DNA from: Candidatus Saccharimonadota bacterium
GTDB taxonomy: Bacteria; Patescibacteriota; Saccharimonadia; Saccharimonadales; JACOTW01
Assembly: GCA_016178135.1 (NCBI GenBank)
Contig: JACOTW010000012.1
Coordinates: forward strand, 1,064-65,063
DNA length: 64,000 bases
Direction: 5' to 3'
Below are positions 6,247 to 45,491 of the stretch, piece by piece. A program made the position numbers and the translations under genes. The stretch's first letter is position 1. Every line of letters begins with the position of its first letter. Under the pieces are notes generated by a model. The model did not search any database, was not told the origin of the DNA, and saw only the letters and a list, made by a program, of their open reading frames with translations.

Positions 6247-6580
6247 TTCCGACACACATTTCGCACTTTTCCATTGCCCCAGTTCACTCCTAACTGGCTA
6301 CAAACTATTGATCTGCCCTCCATGTAGCTACAGCTACCTCTCCATCAGTTCAACAGTTTTCGCTCAGCTATAGCCATTCCAAAACAAAATGACCAAATTT
6401 TGAGTGATGGATGATGAGTCTAAAAACTAGCTTTCTTTGACTAAAGCATATCCGTAGATATGCTGCAGACAAAAAAGTAGTTTTTAGATCATCAGGCGCA
6501 GACAAAAATGGTCATTTTGTTTTGGGATGGCTATAGGCGCAAACTGGCATCAACGGCTAAGTGCGAAATGCGTGTCCGAG
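6247..6580 (+). mobile_element. Composite: divergent family-A element (termini GACACRCATTTCGCAC) interrupted by a family-B-like element
   Basis: 6251-6268 GACACACATTTCGCACTT is the inverted complement of 6559-6576. The interior aligns to A4 (GGCTACAAAC...GTAGCTACAGCTACCTCTCC...CAGTTTTCGCTCAG) up to the nested insertion. Confidence 0.7.
6368..6536. mobile_element. Family-B-like variant element (169 bp) nested inside the composite
   Basis: Termini CTATAGCCATTCCAAAACAAAATGACCA ... TGGTCATTTTGTTTTGGGATGGCTATAG. Confidence 0.75.
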
Positions 6581-13408: not shown

Positions 13409-14580
13409 GACTTGTCTGTAATTTTATCAAGTAATTCTGTGGCGATGGTTAGGCATTCGGTTTTGACTGCTTGCGCTGTGCGACTGTCCGTGACCTTGAA
13501 GCCACTGGCGTAAACGTGCCCACCACCGCCAAAATGAGATGCCAAATCGGCCGCGATGCTGGCACCGGCATTACATCGGATTGAACCGGTAATTTTGCCG
13601 TCATTATAAACTTTCAAGACTATCGCTACTTTTACGCCTTCGGTTTGTAGCATGTCTGTTTGAATAAGTGGGGCTGGATTGTATAGCGGACTGTATTTCA
13701 TTAGTTCATCATGCCCAATACTGACTAATGCGATTCTGTCATCGCTCAATAATTCAGTTCTGTCTATCAGGGTAGCTTTGTATTTAAAAATCGTTTTGGG
13801 CATCTTGGCCTGTGCGCGACGAGCTTCCTCGAGTTTTATTCTGTTAACTCCGCCCTCTATGAGGTCGGCCATAATTCTATAGGTATTTGGCGTTGTGCCT
13901 TCGCTGGAAAGCCCCAGGGAATCTGATAGGATTGAACTAGTGATATGGGTTTTTGCCTGGAGGTTGAGCGGCCAGTTTAGCTCATCGGCCAGTTTATAAA
14001 TCACTTCGCCGGTTGCTACGGCATCATGATCATTTATGACAAGTGTAGCGTAGGTTATGTCGCACTCCACATCAGTGTGATGATCGAGTACGATTACTGG
14101 CTTGGAAGCTACGATGCTTTTGTAGCTACTGTTGTCGAGTTTCTCCAGAAGGATTGCAGCACTAGTGTCTACTATGATGCTTAAGTCGATTTTGTTCGGA
14201 ATCTCCTTACTGACTCTGTCCCAGCCGTCCAAATGACGCAAGTATTCTGGAATATTTACACCACAATACAGAAATGTTTGCTTGCCTGCGTCCCCCAGTA
14301 TTTCCTCAAGTGCCAGGGCACTTCCCAGACTATCCCCATCCGGGTTATCCGCCTGGATTATTGCAATCCGCTCTGATTCATCAACCAACTTCTTAATACC
14401 CTGGTATAGCCCCCGCAAAACAAATTCGGGGGTTTTGGAGCCGATGATCTTCGAGTCAAAAACTGGCTTTTCTGAGGGAAGCATATCATTAGATAAGGTG
14501 AGTGAGGAAAGACAGCTTTTGACCGGAGAGGGCGGTTCAAAAAGCAGTGAATTTGTTTTGCGGGGGCTATAATTATTCAT
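13405..14580 (-). CDS. DHH/DHHA1 phosphoesterase (NrnA-like) carrying an in-frame family-B element after codon 3
   Basis: DNPDGDSLGS, DHH and GGGH motifs. ATG overlaps the recR stop (ATGA). Confidence 0.8.
   Translation of the reverse strand: MNNYSPRKTNSLLFEPPSPVKSCLSSLTLSNDMLPSEKPVFDSKIIGSKTPEFVLRGLYQGIKKLVDESERIAIIQADNPDGDSLGSALALEEILGDAGKQTFLYCGVNIPEYLRHLDGWDRVSKEIPNKIDLSIIVDTSAAILLEKLDNSSYKSIVASKPVIVLDHHTDVECDITYATLVINDHDAVATGEVIYKLADELNWPLNLQAKTHITSSILSDSLGLSSEGTTPNTYRIMADLIEGGVNRIKLEEARRAQAKMPKTIFKYKATLIDRTELLSDDRIALVSIGHDELMKYSPLYNPAPLIQTDMLQTEGVKVAIVLKVYNDGKITGSIRCNAGASIAADLASHFGGGGHVYASGFKVTDSRTAQAVKTECLTIATELLDKITDKS
14405..14571 (+). mobile_element. Family-B element, copy B1 (167 bp including both TA), intragenic
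   Basis: Termini TATAGCCCCCGCAAAACAAATTC ... GAATTTGTTTTGCGGGGGCTATA. Confidence 0.9.
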
Positions 14581-15182
14581 AACAACGTTCTTCCTTCCAG
14601 TGCTCGTCCAAGGGTAATCTGATCAGCATATTCCAGGTCTACGCCAACAGACAGACCGCGTGCCAAGCGAGTGATCTTTACTTTTTGATGGCCCATTTGT
14701 TGTTGAATATATAATGCGGTTGATTCGCCCTCAACACTTGCGTTAGTGGCCAAAATAATTTCCTTGACCTTATCTTCCCTAACGCGTTTAACTAGTTCAG
14801 TTATATGTAATTGCTCTGGACCAATACCGTCAATTGGCGACACTAGACCACCCAAAACATGGTAGGTTCCTCTAAAATGGCCGGTTTTTTCAATAGCGGC
14901 AACATCAAAAGATTCAGCAACTACTGCAACGATTTTTTTGTCTCTGCTTGGATCGGTGTAAAGTGGCGACAACGTTTGACCCTTTTCTACTAAAGCAAAA
15001 GTTTTTTGGCAACGCTCAATGCCGCTATGTAAGCTACTTAATTTTTGTGCTATACGTTCGGCGACACTAGGTTCGGCCTTCAGTAAATAGTAGGCATAAC
15101 GTTCAGCAGTGCGTGGACCTACGCCAGGTAGATCGCCCAATGCTTCGATCACTTCAACTAGTGCCTTGGGTAAAACTTGCAT
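14577..15182 (-). CDS. recR: Recombination protein RecR
   Basis: LPGVGPRTAERYAYYLL helix-hairpin-helix and Toprim-like ILATNASVEGE. Confidence 0.9.
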   Translation of the reverse strand: MQVLPKALVEVIEALGDLPGVGPRTAERYAYYLLKAEPSVAERIAQKLSSLHSGIERCQKTFALVEKGQTLSPLYTDPSRDKKIVAVVAESFDVAAIEKTGHFRGTYHVLGGLVSPIDGIGPEQLHITELVKRVREDKVKEIILATNASVEGESTALYIQQQMGHQKVKITRLARGLSVGVDLEYADQITLGRALEGRTLL

Positions 15183-15187
15183 AAAAT

Positions 15188-15481
15188 CTATAGGCCAAGA
15201 TCACCGAGCATGCCCATAAAAGGTTGCATTTTCTCGGCAGCAATTTTCTGGCTTTGCTGAAGCGCTTCCTTAACGGCATCTTCGACCCACCGTTCTAGTT
15301 GATGGATATCATTAAGATCAACAGCGGCAGGATCAATAGATATTTTTTTGACTTTCTGTTCGCCGGTAATCTCAATTTTGACGGCTCCGTCACCTTCTTC
15401 TACTTCAATGGTCATTTTTTGTAATTCTTTTTGTAGTTTTTTGACTTTTAATAACATTTTAGCTTGATCAAATCGATTCAT
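15188..15481 (-). CDS. ybaB: YbaB/EbfC nucleoid-associated protein
   Basis: 97 aa. Typical size and position upstream of recR. KLQKELQKM...GDGAVKIEITGEQKV. Confidence 0.85.
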   Translation of the reverse strand: MNRFDQAKMLLKVKKLQKELQKMTIEVEEGDGAVKIEITGEQKVKKISIDPAAVDLNDIHQLERWVEDAVKEALQQSQKIAAEKMQPFMGMLGDLGL

Positions 15482-15595
15482 AAATTATCTCCAATTAAAG
15501 TCCTATATATTGTAGCAGAATTAATAGGACTTCAGCACCTTTCTGCGTCTACTCACTATATTGTGGATAATCGGGATCTTGGAATAGCTGTGAAA

Positions 15596-15762
15596 TATAG
15601 CCCCCGCAAAACAAATTCGGGGGTTTTGGAGCCGATGATCTTCGAGTCAAAAACTGGCTTTTCCGAGGGAAGCATATCATTAGATAAGGTGAGTGAGGAA
15701 AGACAGCTTTTGGCCGGAGAGGGCGGTTCAAAAAGTCGTGAATTTGTTTTGCGGGGGCTATA
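15596..15762 (+). mobile_element. Family-B element, copy B2 (167 bp), intergenic
   Basis: Differs from B1 at 4 positions by manual alignment. Same orientation. Confidence 0.9.
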
Positions 15763-16944: not shown

Positions 16945-17032
16945 GAATTTCTTAAGTAGTATACATCGAAAAAGGAAAAACTGTTTGCAACCGGCTTGGG
17001 ACAAGCTGGTATCAACGGCTAACTGGACCTGT

Positions 17033-17182
17033 CGCAAAACTCCTCCATCCCCAGATCGAATTCTATCGGCTACAAACAGTTTTTCTTCTCTCGATGTAGC
17101 TACGGCTACCTCTCCTTCAGACAAAACAGTTTTCGCTCAAGATAATTCACTCTGGGAACGGACGATTTTGCGACAGATCCAG
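17033..17182 (+). mobile_element. Family-A element, copy A4 (150 bp, CTGTCGC subtype), intergenic
   Basis: CTGGACCTGTCGCAAAAC ... ATTTTGCGACAGATCCAG. Flanks are CTAA and TTAA. Confidence 0.85.
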
Positions 17183-32915: not shown

Positions 32916-33638
32916 TTAATTGTACACGAGTTTCGTATGAGCAAAATGAGGTTGTTTAGATCGTATAACGCGTCGTGCGTCAGCTACGTTTGGCAAGTAT
33001 AGAGCAAGTTCTGACCAAAATGGTTCACCGTGGCGCATGACTTTGGTATGAACAAGTTCATGGAGCAAAACGTAATCAATTAATTCCCAGGGAAGCTGCA
33101 TTAAAAAACAATTAAGAGTGATCTCTTTTTGCTGATTACAGCTTCCCCAGCGGCTAGCCAGCCGTTTTATTTGAACGTTGCGATACGAAAATCCATGCCT
33201 AGAAGCGTGTTCCGCGAGGCGACTGGGGAGTAACTTTTGGGCCTCGACTGTTAGAGCTTTGATCGCAACGCGTTCGGCGGCTTTTTGAACTTTTTGGCTT
33301 TCTATAGCAATTGACCTAGGGTAAATAACTCTTGCCTCATTGCCGACCAGCCTGGTTGTTATCCGTTGGCCAGCAACGGATGGTATAAAAATAAGGCTGT
33401 GAGCTTTACCGATTCGCATATTAGAGCTTAAAAGAGTACTACTGTTTGTCTGGTGTTTTAGTATCCAGTCTTGTTTGGATCGAGCAAATTCAATACCGGC
33501 CTTATACGGCAACCATTTAGGCATTGTTACCCTGATGCCACCGACAGCACTCAAGCTAATACGCAGATTACTACTCCCTCGTCGTTTGTACAGTTTAATA
33601 ATGCCGATCTCTGGCAAATCAAATTCTTTTACTGACAT
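32916..33638 (-). CDS. YgjP/DUF45-like zinc metallohydrolase
   Basis: HELVHTKVMRHGEPFW (HExxH). ATG at 33638 is chosen because upstream residues are translated repeat. Confidence 0.7.
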   Translation of the reverse strand: MSVKEFDLPEIGIIKLYKRRGSSNLRISLSAVGGIRVTMPKWLPYKAGIEFARSKQDWILKHQTNSSTLLSSNMRIGKAHSLIFIPSVAGQRITTRLVGNEARVIYPRSIAIESQKVQKAAERVAIKALTVEAQKLLPSRLAEHASRHGFSYRNVQIKRLASRWGSCNQQKEITLNCFLMQLPWELIDYVLLHELVHTKVMRHGEPFWSELALYLPNVADARRVIRSKQPHFAHTKLVYN

Positions 33639-33650
33639 GTTTTTATTATA

Positions 33651-33890
33651 CTGGGCCTGTCGCAAAATCCCTCGTTCCCAGGACGAATCAGCTCGAGCGA
33701 AAACAGTTTTGTCTGAAGGAGAGGTACCCAGGAGGTATAGTCCCCGCAAAACAAATTCGTGGGTTTTTGAAGCAATGATCTTTGAGCCAAAAACTGACTT
33801 TTCCGAGAGAGACATATCCTTAGATACGTTGAACGAGGAAAGGCGGTTTTGGGCCAAAGAGGGTGATTCGAAATTTTGCGACAGGCCCAG
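33651..33890 (-). mobile_element. Composite: family-A element (CTGTCGC subtype) carrying a nested truncated family-B element
   Basis: CTGGGCCTGTCGCAAAATCCC...GGTACCCAGGAG | TATAGTCCCCGCAAAAC...GATTCGAAA | TTTTGCGACAGGCCCAG. Direct TATA at 33647-50 and 33891-94. Confidence 0.85.
33736..33873 (+). mobile_element. Family-B subtype B' (right terminus missing), copy B3, nested in A
   Basis: 138 nt. Differs from B4 at 2 positions by manual alignment. Confidence 0.85.
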
Positions 33891-33978
33891 TATAGGACCT
33901 TCGTACTTTGTCGCCAATTCCAGAGTAATCCTGCAGCCCTCTAGGATTGGTCTGGGGTGATGAAAAAGTAGGAAAAAC

Positions 33979-34641
33979 CTATCTTATTACTATGTTGCGG
34001 CGTGAGTTGTTGACTCGACCAGCCATTGGGTTGGGGATAAGATTGACCAGACCAGGCTTGGCACGTCCGATGTTTGCGGTTGCAGTATCAATTAGACCTA
34101 GATCGTATAATTTTTTCATTATGGCTGATCGTTGCGTTGTGAAATTATGTTTGCCACTGACAACAATACATTCCTCTGTAGCATTAGGGTTCTGCATGGC
34201 GTTGGCTATTTGCTCAAAACTGGTGCGATCGAGGGGCATAGCGTAGCGGTCATCTATTTTTCGGCGATCTCGTTTTGCTACGCGCGTAAAGGCACTTTCT
34301 AGGTCAATTTGCAACCAAACCAACAGGGGGTGAGCTTTTGTCTTGCGGGCCATGTCTCGTAGTAATCGTCTTTGACTGAAACGCAGAGCGTTGACATCAA
34401 ACACGACGCTAATTCCAGCATTTAAAAATTCTTCTGTCATGTATTCCATTAGATGGGTTACTATATTGTTTTCTTGGCGATCAAGACGAGGCTTTTCGAA
34501 TAATTCATTACGAATCCTGTCGCCGTTTACGTGTGCGGCGTTAATCTCATCACAAAGTTGACGCGCAAAGTAGGATTTACCCGACCCCGGATAACCGTAA
34601 AGCAATATCAGGGCTGGACGTGTGAGACTTAATTTACTCAT
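33979..34641 (-). CDS. P-loop kinase/ATPase (AAA_33 / zeta-toxin-like fold)
   Basis: LLYGYPGSGKSYFARQL Walker A. ATG at 34641 is chosen because upstream residues are translated repeat. Confidence 0.6.
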   Translation of the reverse strand: MSKLSLTRPALILLYGYPGSGKSYFARQLCDEINAAHVNGDRIRNELFEKPRLDRQENNIVTHLMEYMTEEFLNAGISVVFDVNALRFSQRRLLRDMARKTKAHPLLVWLQIDLESAFTRVAKRDRRKIDDRYAMPLDRTSFEQIANAMQNPNATEECIVVSGKHNFTTQRSAIMKKLYDLGLIDTATANIGRAKPGLVNLIPNPMAGRVNNSRRNIVIR

Positions 34642-34701
34642 TCCTATTAAATTATAACAATTAGACAAAATTTGCAAAGTTTTGTTTCGGGTGATTATAG
34701 A

Positions 34702-34861
34702 CTGGACCTGTCGCAAAATCCCTCGTTCCCAGGGCGAATCAGCTCGAGCGAAAACAGTTTTATCCGAAGGAGAGGTACCAGGGAGGTACATCGAGAGAGG
34801 AAAAACTGTTTGCAGCCGAGATTAGTCGGTCTGGGGATGAGGGATTTTGCGACAGGTCCAG
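34702..34861 (-). mobile_element. Family-A element, copy A9 (160 bp, CTGTCGC subtype), intergenic
   Basis: Perfect termini. Direct TAGA at 34698-701 and 34862-65. Confidence 0.9.
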
Positions 34862-35462: not shown

Positions 35463-36152
35463 GTGAGCAGTTATAGCCCCCGCAAAACAAATTCGTGGGT
35501 TTTTGAAGCAATGATCTTTGAGTCAAAAACTGACTTTTCCGAGAGAGACATATCCTTAGATACGTTGAACGAGGAAAGGCGGTTTTGGGCCAAAGAGGGT
35601 GATTCGAAAAGAGCTTATTATCTAACACAGTTTGACGCGCTGGAAGCTCTAGACAACGGTGTTGGTAATTGTTTTTCGAAAGCTATGGTTGCATGTGGAA
35701 TAATAGTATTAAAATATGCGGTTGAGCCGTCAATAGTTTATAAAAAGTCGATACATGGCTCTAAAGATACTGCGATTGATAAGCCTACGGACTCAAAAAC
35801 AGGCAAAAAAATCGCGCATGTGGTTGTAGCCGTACCCGGTTCAAATCCAACTACAGATAAATCTATTCCGGGCTTGAATTTTGGAGTAGCAGTTTCCCAA
35901 GGAGTTAAATTTACCCAAACAGATGCAGGTGAAATACTACAGGATTATAATGAACCCGGAGAATTTGTACGTGTTAATGAAACGGGCACAGTGATTGCTA
36001 CTGAAATTGCTACTGAACGGGGTATGTTTGGTGATAGGTGGCGGGATATTGCTCCAGATTATTTACAAGCTTTGGACAGACCTGACCTGGACATAGATCT
36101 CTTAATTGGTAAGCTCAAAGAATCATACCCAGATGATCAAGTTGCGGCATAG
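35463..36152 (+). CDS. Hypothetical protein. The first about 49 codons derive from family-B element B4. Possible Cys-His peptidase-like core.
   Basis: GTG start at 35463. No alternative ATG before residue 75. GNCFSKAMVAC ... AHVVVAV noted, but this is a weak motif. Confidence 0.4.
   Translation: MSSYSPRKTNSWVFEAMIFESKTDFSERDISLDTLNEERRFWAKEGDSKRAYYLTQFDALEALDNGVGNCFSKAMVACGIIVLKYAVEPSIVYKKSIHGSKDTAIDKPTDSKTGKKIAHVVVAVPGSNPTTDKSIPGLNFGVAVSQGVKFTQTDAGEILQDYNEPGEFVRVNETGTVIATEIATERGMFGDRWRDIAPDYLQALDRPDLDIDLLIGKLKESYPDDQVAA
35472..35610 (+). mobile_element. Family-B subtype B' copy B4 (right terminus missing)
   Basis: TATAGCCCCCGCAAAACAAATTCGTGGG...GGGTGATTCGAAA. Confidence 0.85.
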
Positions 36153-37013: not shown

Positions 37014-37099
37014 GCAGGGTTAGTGAAGCGGTCAAACACGGCAGACTGTAAATCTGCTGGCTTATGCCTTCGTAGGTTCGAATCCTACACCCTGCACCA
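37014..37099 (+). tRNA. tRNA-Tyr (anticodon GUA), long variable arm, CCA encoded
   Basis: GCAGGGTTAGTGAAGCGGTCAAACACGGCAGACTGTAAATCTGCTGGCTTATGCCTTCGTAGGTTCGAATCCTACACCCTGCACCA. Confidence 0.9.
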
Positions 37100-37163
37100 A
37101 AGCCCTTATGCTGGCCTTGTCTATAAACTTGAGTTATACTAAAATTACATAAAGGAGTAAAAC

Positions 37164-37538
37164 ATGGCTCGCATCAATGAAGTACTACCAATAGTTGTCG
37201 ACCCAAATCATGAACGATTTGGACATATAGGTGAAATGGTTTTCTCAGGTGCTTCTGGTGACGGGACCTGCATCATTAAGTTTGAAGATGGAGAAGAAGC
37301 TCATCTTAATGATGGTTGGCTAACAGGTGTACCGCAGTTTGTAGCACCATTACGAACTGAAGAAGCTGGAGTTCGTCGACTTAAAGACGCATTACCAGAG
37401 ATGCAAAAAGCTCTTAGAGAGCTAGCCGACAAAGTAACTGAGCCGAGAAAGCAACCCCCAGCCGAGGAGACACTTACTACACGTGCAGGTTTCGTTGCCC
37501 TAATTAATAAAGTGCTTTTTGAGACAACAACCAAATAA
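37164..37538 (+). CDS. Hypothetical protein (island cassette 1)
   Basis: 124-aa ORF with AAAGGAG SD 7 nt upstream. Confidence 0.5.
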   Translation: MARINEVLPIVVDPNHERFGHIGEMVFSGASGDGTCIIKFEDGEEAHLNDGWLTGVPQFVAPLRTEEAGVRRLKDALPEMQKALRELADKVTEPRKQPPAEETLTTRAGFVALINKVLFETTTK

Positions 37539-37567
37539 TCCAGGGAGTTTTTTGTTATACTCAGTGT

Positions 37568-38103
37568 ATGGAGAAACCTAAACTACTGCTCATAAAAACT
37601 GGCGGAACGATCGATGGTTGCGTACCTGAATATATATAGAGATTGAGCAAATTGCTAATCTTTTCAATGATTCAGTTAACTTCAGCAAACACATTACTCA
37701 AAGCTTTAAAGCTGCCGTTCAGTTTTCAGAATTCGAAGTCTGCAAGAAGGATAGTCGTAGTATAACTGATAGCGACCGAAGAATTATAAGTGAGGTCATT
37801 GGGCGTGAATTTCAGCAAGGCACTAAGAAGTTTCTGATTACACACGGTACATTTACAATGTCTGAGACAGGTGAATTTCTCATAAACAATCTGCCTAAGG
37901 ATGTTCTGGCTAGTTCCACCATCATATTAACTGGCGCAATGTATCCATGGAACGTTTATGGGTCTGACGCCCCAATGAACTTGGGAGCGTCTATATCCCA
38001 ATTAATTTCCGAGCATGTCAGTGGTGTTTGGATCTGTATGCACGGAAAGTTATTTGACCCACGAAAAGTTAATAAAGATGCTGAAAAGCGTATATTTGAG
38101 TAG
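37568..38103 (+). pseudogene. L-asparaginase-like gene interrupted by a +2 frameshift in a (TA)4 tract
   Basis: Frame 2: MEKPKLLLIKTGGTIDG...EYI then a stop at 37637-39. The next frame continues ...FLITHGTFTMSETG...ILTGAMYP... Deleting one TA restores a 177-aa ORF. Confidence 0.7.
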
Positions 38104-38125
38104 ATCGAGCAAGCGCAAAAAGTAA

Positions 38126-38166
38126 AGTTCTGACCTCAGACATGACCCTGCACCAAAGCATAAGCA
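38126..38166 (+). repeat. tRNA-Tyr 3'-end-like direct repeat R1
   Basis: AGTTCTGACCTCAGACATGACCCTGCACCAAAGCATAAGCA. A 15-nt exact match (ACCCTGCACCAAAGC) to 37089-37103. Confidence 0.8.
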
Positions 38167-40331: not shown

Positions 40332-40526
40332 GTGCCGTATGCACCATACGAACAAGTGCCTGAGCGTGTCTGGAGGTTTGATGGAACTACAGATGTGCAT
40401 GCAGTTACAGGTAAGGGATACACATCACGTAACCGTTTATTGGTATACGCGGATGGTGAAGATACTAAGTTCACCCAAATTTTTGAAGACGAGTACGACC
40501 CGGCTCCAGAGACATCGCAGATATAG
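40332..40526 (+). CDS. Hypothetical protein (start uncertain; frame open from 40251)
   Basis: 64-aa ORF from GTG. Acidic C-terminus. Confidence 0.35.
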   Translation: MPYAPYEQVPERVWRFDGTTDVHAVTGKGYTSRNRLLVYADGEDTKFTQIFEDEYDPAPETSQI

Positions 40527-40544
40527 CCCCCGCAAAACAAATTC
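40522..40544 (+). repeat. Orphan family-B left terminus
   Basis: TATAGCCCCCGCAAAACAAATTC, 23/23 identical to the B1/B2 terminus. No matching right end nearby. Confidence 0.8.
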
Positions 40545-40568
40545 CCTCACACGGCTTTTATATAGAGT

Positions 40569-40882: not shown

Positions 40883-40886
40883 CCCA

Positions 40887-40920
40887 AGTTTCAGTAATAA
40901 ACATGCACCATAACCGTATG
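40887..40920 (+). repeat. tRNA-Tyr 3'-end-like direct repeat R6 (degenerate)
   Basis: AGTTTCAGTAATAAACATGCACCATAACCGTATG. Confidence 0.45.
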
Positions 40921-40970
40921 TGTAATGGATAAATGACGTCAATCTGTTCTTTTTTTGCTAAGATGAATTT

Positions 40971-41527
40971 ATGATTGCAATACCACAGGAACTAATTAAG
41001 GAAATTTCTGATCGTAATAATTCTGGCGTTCTCCTAGTGGCCGTCGATGAGGTGCGGAGGTGCGGGGAAAAGTACGGCTGCAACAGAACTAGCTTCTAAG
41101 CTAGAGGGTAGTCAGATAGTACATATTGACGACTTCTATAAACCAAAGGAACAGAGGATGGAAATAACCGACCAAACTCCAGTTCACATTAATTTTGAGT
41201 TTGAACGGTTAAAACAAGAAGTGCTTGAACCTTTGGGGCGTTTGACCGTAGCTAAACCATACTTCTGCCGGGGAACAGCTCAAAGCTCAACCGAATGGTA
41301 TTGTTGTTGTTGAGGGCCTCGGGACATTGGGAACGGAGCTTAGAGACTATTTCGACTACAAGATTTGGGTCGACTCTCCCGAAGCCATAAGGCGACAACG
41401 AGGCATTGGGCGTGATACTGTGGAATGGACAAGAGTTTGGGACGAAGAATACCTGCCCCAAGATGCTCGTTATGTCAATGAACAGGCACCCCAGAATGTA
41501 GCTGACTGGATACTGAGAAATGAGTAA
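40971..41527 (+). pseudogene. Uridine-kinase-like P-loop kinase broken by two +1 frameshifts
   Basis: Frame 0: MIAIPQELIKEISDRNNSGVLLVAVD. Frame +1: CGGAGKSTAATELA...HIDDFYKP. Frame +2: NGIVVVVEGLGTLGTELRDYFDYKIWVD... Confidence 0.7.
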
Positions 41528-41582
41528 TATTGATACTGCAGCATCCTGGGGATAGGCAGCTTTGGCCAAGTCCAGCTAAAGT

Positions 41583-45275: not shown

Positions 45276-45327
45276 TGGTAATAGTATACACGAGTTACGG
45301 CGACAGCTAAAAACGATTGATTGTATA

Positions 45328-45484
45328 TAGGACTTACGCACTTTGTTACCAATGCCAGAGTGTAGCTGGGTGAGCGAAAACGGTTCAGGTTCTGGAGGGG
45401 TAGCCATAGCTACACCGAGAGAACATGGGCCGTTTGTAGCCACATAGGTTAAGTCTGGTGTGGTAAGAAAGTGCGTAAGTCCTA
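45328..45484 (-). mobile_element. Family-A element, copy A13 (157 bp), between rpsI and trpS
   Basis: TAGGACTTACGCACTTT ... AAAGTGCGTAAGTCCTA. Flanked by TATA on both sides. Confidence 0.8.
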
Positions 45485-45491
45485 TATAATT

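Follow-up and report, generated by a model that had tools for sequence, protein, structure and literature searches.

An IS630-type MITE nested in an older, related MITE of a Saccharibacteria genome, with a truncation that most likely arose in assembly

Nested MITEs are classical in plants (Jiang and Wessler 2001). Among prokaryotes the nesting of mobile elements is treated as routine (PMC3852290), and the closest counterparts of the locus analyzed here are the nested ("Russian doll") insertions of IS and MITEs, in which the guest is complete with its own duplication and the two halves of the host are contiguous elsewhere. Both properties are found in the present case, which lies in a window of 64,000 nucleotides from a Candidatus Saccharimonadota bacterium (GCA_016178135.1, contig JACOTW010000012.1), with the difference that host and guest are colinear relatives whose termini and target duplications are not the same (TNNA versus TA). 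The window contig holds the left end of the guest only, whereas a complete guest is present in GCA_040960765.1 (contigs L050 and L052) and at 6250-6577 of the window. The guest belongs to a family that we call B, which is like the IS630/Tc1-mariner-derived MITEs (Stowaway-like elements and the ISMma9-derived MITE; PMC3852290) in being short, hairpin-forming, TA-flanked and provided with IS630 ends. As for other IS630-derived MITEs, the ends of family B (23-32 nt) equal those of a 1.1-kb IS, the difference being that the IS partners are here seen in other CPR genomes only.

Two further systems bear on the truncated form of the element in the window contig. IDBA-UD scaffolding errors resemble what we describe below in being losses at repeat-induced contig ends that differ between assemblies of the same population, although one of the five losses found here does not fit a simple k-1 arithmetic. 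The SbcCD (Mre11-Rad50) nuclease is alike in distance, as the breakpoints lie 25-29 nt from the element end at an AT-rich mismatched stretch, compared with 20-27 bp for the nuclease (PMC6265447); the likeness is one of distance only, and the same distance follows from the k-mer size.

From the comparisons below we conclude that the event is of an ordinary kind, an IS630-type MITE having inserted into an older and related MITE, that the organism itself most likely retains the complete nested element (325 nt), as the sister genome does, and that the truncated form, in which the guest is cut at position 138 and joined to the last 17 nt of the host, most likely arose in assembly. We assign this reading as a whole a probability of roughly 0.75. 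A first-pass annotation of the window had proposed the nesting, the order A then B, and the outer TATA pair as target duplication, all of which stand, along with later internal deletions, which we do not retain as biology.

Layout of the nested element and its spacer

The element occupies 33647-33894 in the spacer between two genes on the minus strand of this groundwater bacterium, and its parts are listed below together with the neighboring features.

32916-33638, minus strand: gene for a YgjP-like/DUF45 metallopeptidase (Pfam PF01863, E 1.5e-40), its ATG 8 nt from the element
33647-33650, no strand: left TATA, 4-bp target-site duplication of the family-A element; direct repeat with 33891-33894, and the same TATA pair surrounds the intact element in L050
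33651-33737, plus strand: family-A left arm, A positions 1-87 (alignment of 12 copies), with the terminal inverted repeat at 33651-33668
33736-33737, plus strand: A's own TA (A positions 86-87), target of B2
33738-33873, plus strand: family-B2 MITE, IS630-derived, element positions 3-138 of 167 (both TA counted); left terminal repeat intact, right one absent in the window contig
33873/33874, no strand: join, probably a scaffold join; missing are B2 139-165, the second TA and A 88-143
33874-33890, plus strand: family-A right terminal inverted repeat, 17 nt, with the same private G as the left repeat; also present in L048
33891-33894, no strand: right copy of the TATA duplication
33895-33975, plus strand: older degenerate remnant of an A4-type MITE, filling the rest of the spacer
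33979-34641, minus strand: AAA_33 kinase-like gene, upstream

The outermost 22 nt on each side (33647-33668 and 33873-33894) form a perfect inverted repeat consisting of TATA and CTGGGCCTGTCGCAAAAT. Read on the plus strand, TATA is followed by the A arm, which runs from CTGGGCCTGTCGCAAAAT to GGAGGTA (33651-33737), and then by the B part, which starts with TAGTCCCCGCAAAAC and finishes with GGGTGATTCGAAA (33738-33873); GATTCGAAA finishes at 33873, TTTTGCGACAGGCCCAG occupies 33874-33890, and TATA 33891-33894. The join in the window can be written as GATTCGAAA followed by TTTTGCGAC, or as GATTCGAAA followed by TTTTGCGACAGG, with GATTCGAAATTTTGCGACAGG as the spanning string, and its counterpart in the intact form is GATTCGAAAAGTCGGGAATTTG adjoining CATCGAGAGAGG, also written GATTCGAAAAGTCGGGAATTTG...GGGGGCTATACATCGAGAG.

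BLAST within the window matched positions 1-91 of the chimera to the full A copy at 34698-34788 (92.3% identity, E 2e-27), and matched 33736-33873 to the B2 copy at 35472-35609 (98.6%, E 3e-52) and to the full-length B copies at 14405-14571 and 15596-15762 (80-81%). Outside the window the B2 part is 96.4% identical to a full B2 in another Saccharibacteria MAG (L004) and 100% identical to L048 1824-1933. The limits first proposed for the A arm, the B part, the 17-nt A end and the TATA flanks all hold in the sequence and in BLAST, with one refinement: the end of the A arm moves from 33735 to 33737, because the TA at 33736-33737 is A's own and the target of B. A progenitor was composed of the A copy at 34702 and the full B2 of L004 inserted at the TA, and its alignment with the chimera, which covers both families, shows a single 85-nt gap and 228/240 identities; measured against L052, 86 nt are missing at the join.

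Perfect 4-bp TNNA direct repeats (TAGA, TTTA, TAAA, TCTA or TATA) flank 8/10 full-length A copies, and the outer TATA is therefore A's target duplication, as had been suggested. The inner boundary is equally regular. In the alignment of 12 copies a TA stands at positions 86-87 of every A copy, and the junction in the chimera consists of this TA and the first base of B, which bears out the earlier claim that B inserted into A.

In relatives the AAA_33 stop is separated from the DUF45 ATG by 15-26 nt, compared with 340 nt in the window. The stretch 33891-33926 aligns with the end of the A4 copy at 45325-45361 (30/36 identical, z 7.4 against shuffles). Since relatives have only 15-26 nt and this A4-type end abuts the chimera, the spacer holds three MITE layers. 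The DUF45 protein of the window is 100% identical to MBI1857404.1, and relatives start at the same Met as the window gene. In the three assemblies the deposited DUF45 proteins are 212, 299 and 329 aa long (P0121, P0001, P0122), and their called starts fall within MITE sequence or downstream of a start that is missing (window 32916-33917); the relatives and the ATG at 33638 indicate that the true protein would be about 240 aa. Exact look-ups of the DUF45, AAA_33 and 229-aa products returned nothing useful.

The right repeat of the host A varies between strains. Comparison of 33874-33890 with L050 3902-3918 shows differences at 4-5 clustered positions: the window and JACPYE (GCA_016196105.1) have an A1-type repeat that complements the left one perfectly, and GCA_040960765.1 has an A2-type repeat (CTGGGCTTACGCAAAAC). 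Both types have a G that is absent from all other A copies. To judge from these sequences, the strain difference looks like conversion of one terminal repeat.

Families A and B and the IS630 origin of B

Family A is represented by at least 13 copies in the 64 kb, of 143-160 nt and with a near-perfect hairpin, and its terminal pattern has 9 matches in the window compared with 0.04 expected. The following copy served as reference.

34702-34861, plus strand: complete family-A copy of 160 nt with a TAGA duplication and a long hairpin

Family B consists of non-coding hairpin elements of 163 nt plus TA, or 167 nt with both TA, and its terminal pattern is found 8 times versus 0.18 expected. Every complete copy has TA on both sides, and the terminal repeat is perfect over 23 nt, followed just inside by a 5-nt mismatch next to a T-run. 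Both families fold as long hairpins (z -13 for A and -10.8 for B). Altogether 19 MITE-derived loci make up 5.8% of the 64 kb and lie among ribosomal, replication and tRNA-synthetase genes, so that about 6% of a housekeeping-gene window consists of such elements. An Rfam search gave no match at any MITE locus, a promoter scan gave no signal above shuffles, and searches of plasmid and phage collections yielded nothing useful. No paper on MITEs in Saccharibacteria or CPR bacteria was found in the literature searched, and neither A nor B is described in the papers and collections covered.

The origin of B can be traced through its ends. The 22-nt B end was located in 14 contigs from a range of CPR bacteria, in many cases at the contig end, and several of these contigs carry elements of 1105-1144 bp that are bounded by B ends and encode a protein of 342-348 aa with a DDE_3 domain (PF13358, E 3e-22) and NF033545 scores of 202 and 186 bits (cut-off 100). 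Over 32-34 nt the B ends are 90.6-97.1% identical to the IS ends in L002, L003 and L008. Because the B ends are the ends of an IS630-family IS with a DDE_3/NF033545 transposase, B is an IS630-derived MITE and, judged by these ends, a non-autonomous derivative of the 1.1-kb insertion sequence found in other CPR bacteria, the only genomes in which its autonomous partner was seen. No IS630 transposase was found in the window by tblastn, and its 20 largest ORFs are housekeeping genes. For family A no autonomous partner was found, as only chance matches to the A ends turned up in JGI metagenomes and IMG/VR. The 22-nt IS630-type end TATAGYCCCCGCAAAACAAATT is exact in Saccharibacteria, Kuenenbacteria, Minisyncoccia, CPR3 and other Patescibacteria (L001-L014), and the transposases are divergent. 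From the nesting, the two related MITE families of this reduced CPR genome can be placed in relative order, and one of the two is tied to an IS630-family element with ends that are conserved in several CPR lineages.

A local origin of the B part, by duplication or gene conversion, is rejected because the B2 copies are uniformly 96-99% alike, also when the MAG of another species is included. The B2 at L004 5771-5937 is 96-98% identical to window 33736-33873 and 35472-35611, and genes common to the L004 MAG and the window MAG are only 72-80% identical in DNA; the likeness of the B2 sequences suggests a recent horizontal spread of the MITE or its IS. Another subfamily, B1, has two copies in 14405-15762 that are 97.6% identical, in direct orientation, and bracket ybaB-recR (14577-15481), an arrangement that in its sequence layout resembles a composite transposon.

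A and B are themselves colinear relatives, with about 65% identity over about 105 nt and z up to 15 (compared were, for example, the A copy at 17023-17182 and the B copies at 14405-14571 and 35472-35611). They differ in the last ~10 nt and in the target duplication, which is TNNA (4 bp) for A versus TA for B. On this pattern MITE cores may change transposase system by gaining new ends.

Intact and truncated forms in three assemblies

The chimera locus carries the element in three assemblies, namely the window, GCA_016196105.1 (JACPYE; contigs L048 and L053; the sister MAG) and GCA_040960765.1, which was located by an exact-protein look-up and is 99.5-99.8% identical to the window. In GCA_040960765.1 the locus shows, in order, TATA, the A end and A arm, a TA, a full B2 with its two terminal repeats, the second TA, the other A arm and A end, and TATA, followed after 8 nt by the DUF45 ATG. 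The insertion point in L050 is GATG-TA-[B2]-TA-CCTCC, compared with one TA in A copies. The intact nested element, a 167-nt B2 with its TA duplication inside a complete A flanked by TATA, matches the predicted progenitor and is in place. The bases absent at 33873/33874 exist in L048 1740-1823 as well as in L050 3918-4003. A further complete nesting, unchanged in L056, is present in the window itself.

6250-6577, plus strand: independent, complete nesting, in which an A3-type element hosts a B3-type element at 6369-6535 that has its two terminal repeats and a TA at either end

The uninterrupted A4 relative at 45323-45482 has a single TA at the spot corresponding to the B3 insertion. It is clear from the intact allele and from this second case that B elements insert into A elements. 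No A-only allele was found, so the order A first is deduced from the logic of nesting and from the divergence of the copies (B2 copies 96-99% alike, A copies 75-92%), which agree with the order proposed earlier. We infer that a family-A MITE of ~160 nt with a long hairpin would have inserted at TATA and duplicated it, and that a family-B2 MITE would then have inserted at A's TA (positions 86-87), duplicating the TA.

The truncation was analyzed by comparing the window with L052 and with GCA_016196105.1, which has 5 mismatches to the window in 23,643 nt. B2 copies at three loci are involved: the chimera copy (B2a), the copy at 35472 (B2b) and the copy at 40522 (B2c).

35472-35611, plus strand: second B2 copy, positions 1-140; the following 139 nt are missing versus the sister assemblies
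40522-40546, plus strand: third B2 locus, 25-nt terminal repeat only; full-length in L052 9718-9884

The losses at these loci are as follows.

B2a, window: B2 positions 1-138 kept, 86 bases missing
B2a, sister MAG: 29-167 kept, 174 missing, including the DUF45 start
B2b, window: 1-140 kept, 139 missing, including the start of a 201-aa ORF
B2c, sister MAG: 1-139 kept, 155 missing
B2c, window: 25-nt terminal stub kept, 168 missing

None of the five losses is common to two assemblies, and the assembly from another study has all three B2 copies intact. The retained stretches are 138, 139, 140 and 139 nt in 4/5 losses, and the fifth keeps 25 nt. Microhomology is absent at 5/5 joins (L052 coordinates). 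The joins other than the one in the chimera are window 35611/35612 and 40546/40547, L048 1933/1934 and L053 ~5046, with losses of 139-174 nt; three of these four have an edge 27-28 nt from the B2 end, that is 139-140 nt from the other flank, the exception being 40546/40547, which has no edge at the k-1 coordinate.

MEGAHIT by default uses 141 as its largest k, and IDBA-UD may join contigs with a negative gap estimate by skipping bases, the overlap being unchecked, which would fit the losses. As B2 has at least three near-identical copies, MEGAHIT contigs at k=141 would stop about 140 nt into each copy, and the IDBA-UD scaffolder would join the overlapping ends on a too-negative paired-read distance, dropping 85 nt. 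Such a contig extends 140 nt into a repeat, and with a B2 length of 167 nt its end would leave stretches like those of 138-140 nt that are kept. This coincidence is directly visible in the sister MAG, where L048 ends exactly at the position of the window join at 35611, which is B2b position 140, and another contig ends at position 17, which is the position of a private SNP (157) minus 140. Compared with the other strains, the second B2 copy of JACPYE (L053 130-150) has G in place of C at position 157 and one TA more, its end reading ...GGGGGGGCTATATAAGCG. Moreover, B2a is preserved in complementary halves, 1-138 in the window and 29-167 in the sister MAG, which are identical where they overlap, and SRR12113417 yields a Logan contig that is 100% identical to the window and retains the DUF45 start and the A end that are missing in the sister MAG. 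The only family affected by losses is the one with identical stretches of at least 141 nt; the B1, B3 and A copies lack such stretches, and over the 20 kb that hold them the strains are colinear and no losses are found. He et al. 2021, whose assemblies were made with MEGAHIT 1.2.9 at default parameters and then the scaffolding function of IDBA-UD, are the source of the sister MAG, NC_groundwater_855_Pr1_B-0.1um_43_34; the accession series and the 100% identity to JACPYE suggest that the window MAG came from the same pipeline. Local scaffolding errors are known in CPR genomes scaffolded with IDBA-UD and were corrected with ra2.py in curated ones (PMC5220378).

Three observations run counter to an assembly origin. 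B2a has a private T at position 6 that should extend a k=141 contig to 146, unless it is also present in another copy; at the third window locus, with 25 nt retained and 168 lost, neither side is at the k-1 coordinate, and no strain SNP 140 nt from its junction was found there; and all five errors are losses, of 86-174 nt, which requires a systematic bias of the scaffolder.

The main alternative, that the 85-nt loss is a real deletion and one of several recent ones running outward from 25-29 nt inside the B2 end, is in our judgment unlikely. A possible cause would be a Mre11-Rad50/SbcCD-type nuclease that clips a transposase-bound cleaved end, followed by blunt rejoining to a resected flank. 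Agreement with such a mechanism is found in the five breakpoints, which lie 25, 27, 28, 28 and 29 nt from the B2 end at the 5-nt mismatch and T-run, as SbcCD breaks DNA 20-27 bp from a blocked end and favors meltable DNA (PMC6265447), and in the 25-nt stub at 40522, which k-1 arithmetic leaves unexplained. On the other hand 167 minus 140 is 27, so the apparent hot spot is the reach of k=141 contigs, and a sister contig indeed ends there: the left edge of the chimera join, at B2 position 138, is within 2 nt of the k-1 reach, and the junction coordinate of the sister MAG is also a contig end. It could be argued that de Bruijn contigs need shared k-mers for joins, so that a junction inside a contig would imply reads, but the joins are added by scaffolding after contig building and therefore need no k-mer support. 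Five unshared events against 5 SNPs would be an implausible rate, the starts of two genes go missing with the losses (DUF45 in the sister MAG, the 201-aa ORF in the window), and the assembly from another study lacks none of the three copies. The claim of the first-pass annotation that later deletions remove internal segments is not upheld for these reasons: one 85-nt gap fits the structure, but its left edge and those of the sister losses lie at contig-end positions for k=141, the joins are without microhomology, and no loss is common to two near-identical assemblies. Slightly less probable still is the stricter version in which recurrent blunt-ended B2 deletions would have an inner edge fixed 25-29 nt from the end by a nuclease "ruler"; if true, it would be a natural record of a host disarming MITEs and removing neighboring gene starts along with them. 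Misassembly within the de Bruijn graph through shared k-mers is ruled out, as the junctions share 0-1 nt, and scaffolding remains the candidate. A 4.9-kb inversion that would have split one B2 into 35472-35611 and 40522-40546 was considered, as the halves almost join, and was rejected: rpmG within the segment has the ancestral orientation, and sister genomes have two separate full copies.

Two other readings concern the nesting itself. The chimera might be a mobile third family that uses A's ends and arrived already nested, and both A terminal repeats are indeed intact and perfectly complementary, within an intact TATA duplication. The search for another chimera that the earlier annotation had called for turned up no second copy of either junction in the window or in the fetched B-end loci from other genomes, which argues against a third family, as does the presence of the element at the same locus in three assemblies; we regard this reading as very improbable. 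An A-end...B-end pattern at the chimera spacing was not found in JGI metagenomes either, a collection that is also without family A, and that scan is therefore uninformative. Least credible of all is a joining of the A and B parts by illegitimate or homeologous recombination between copies. The two families are colinear relatives, as described above, and full copies of both lie within 2 kb, but the join is not colinear, as A 1-87 is followed by B position 1 and not by a position around 90, which rules out homologous A-B recombination. The join is also exactly at a B terminus and a TA, and the intact allele has the other terminus of B and a second TA. We thus prefer the nested insertion with a truncation introduced in scaffolding. 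Repeat-linked scaffold joins in public MAGs can mimic transposon decay and remove gene starts, and MITE dynamics or pseudogenes inferred from such MAGs need read-level checks.

Other variable segments of the window

The A4 copy at 45326-45488 is absent from a 99%-identical strain (L052 14673/14675), where the site reads GATTGTACATTTTAACG. This presence/absence difference shows recent A-type mobility or an excision footprint. A segment of 1,041 nt (37104-38144) is present in the window and in JACPYE and absent from GCA_040960765.1; its start follows directly on a tRNA gene (37014-37096), a 15-nt direct repeat (CCCTGCACCAAAGC...) marks its limits, and with these boundaries it may be a small integrated element. 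Finally, 40884-41575 is replaced by a different 677-nt NUDIX segment in GCA_040960765.1 and in a Logan contig from SRR25508618.
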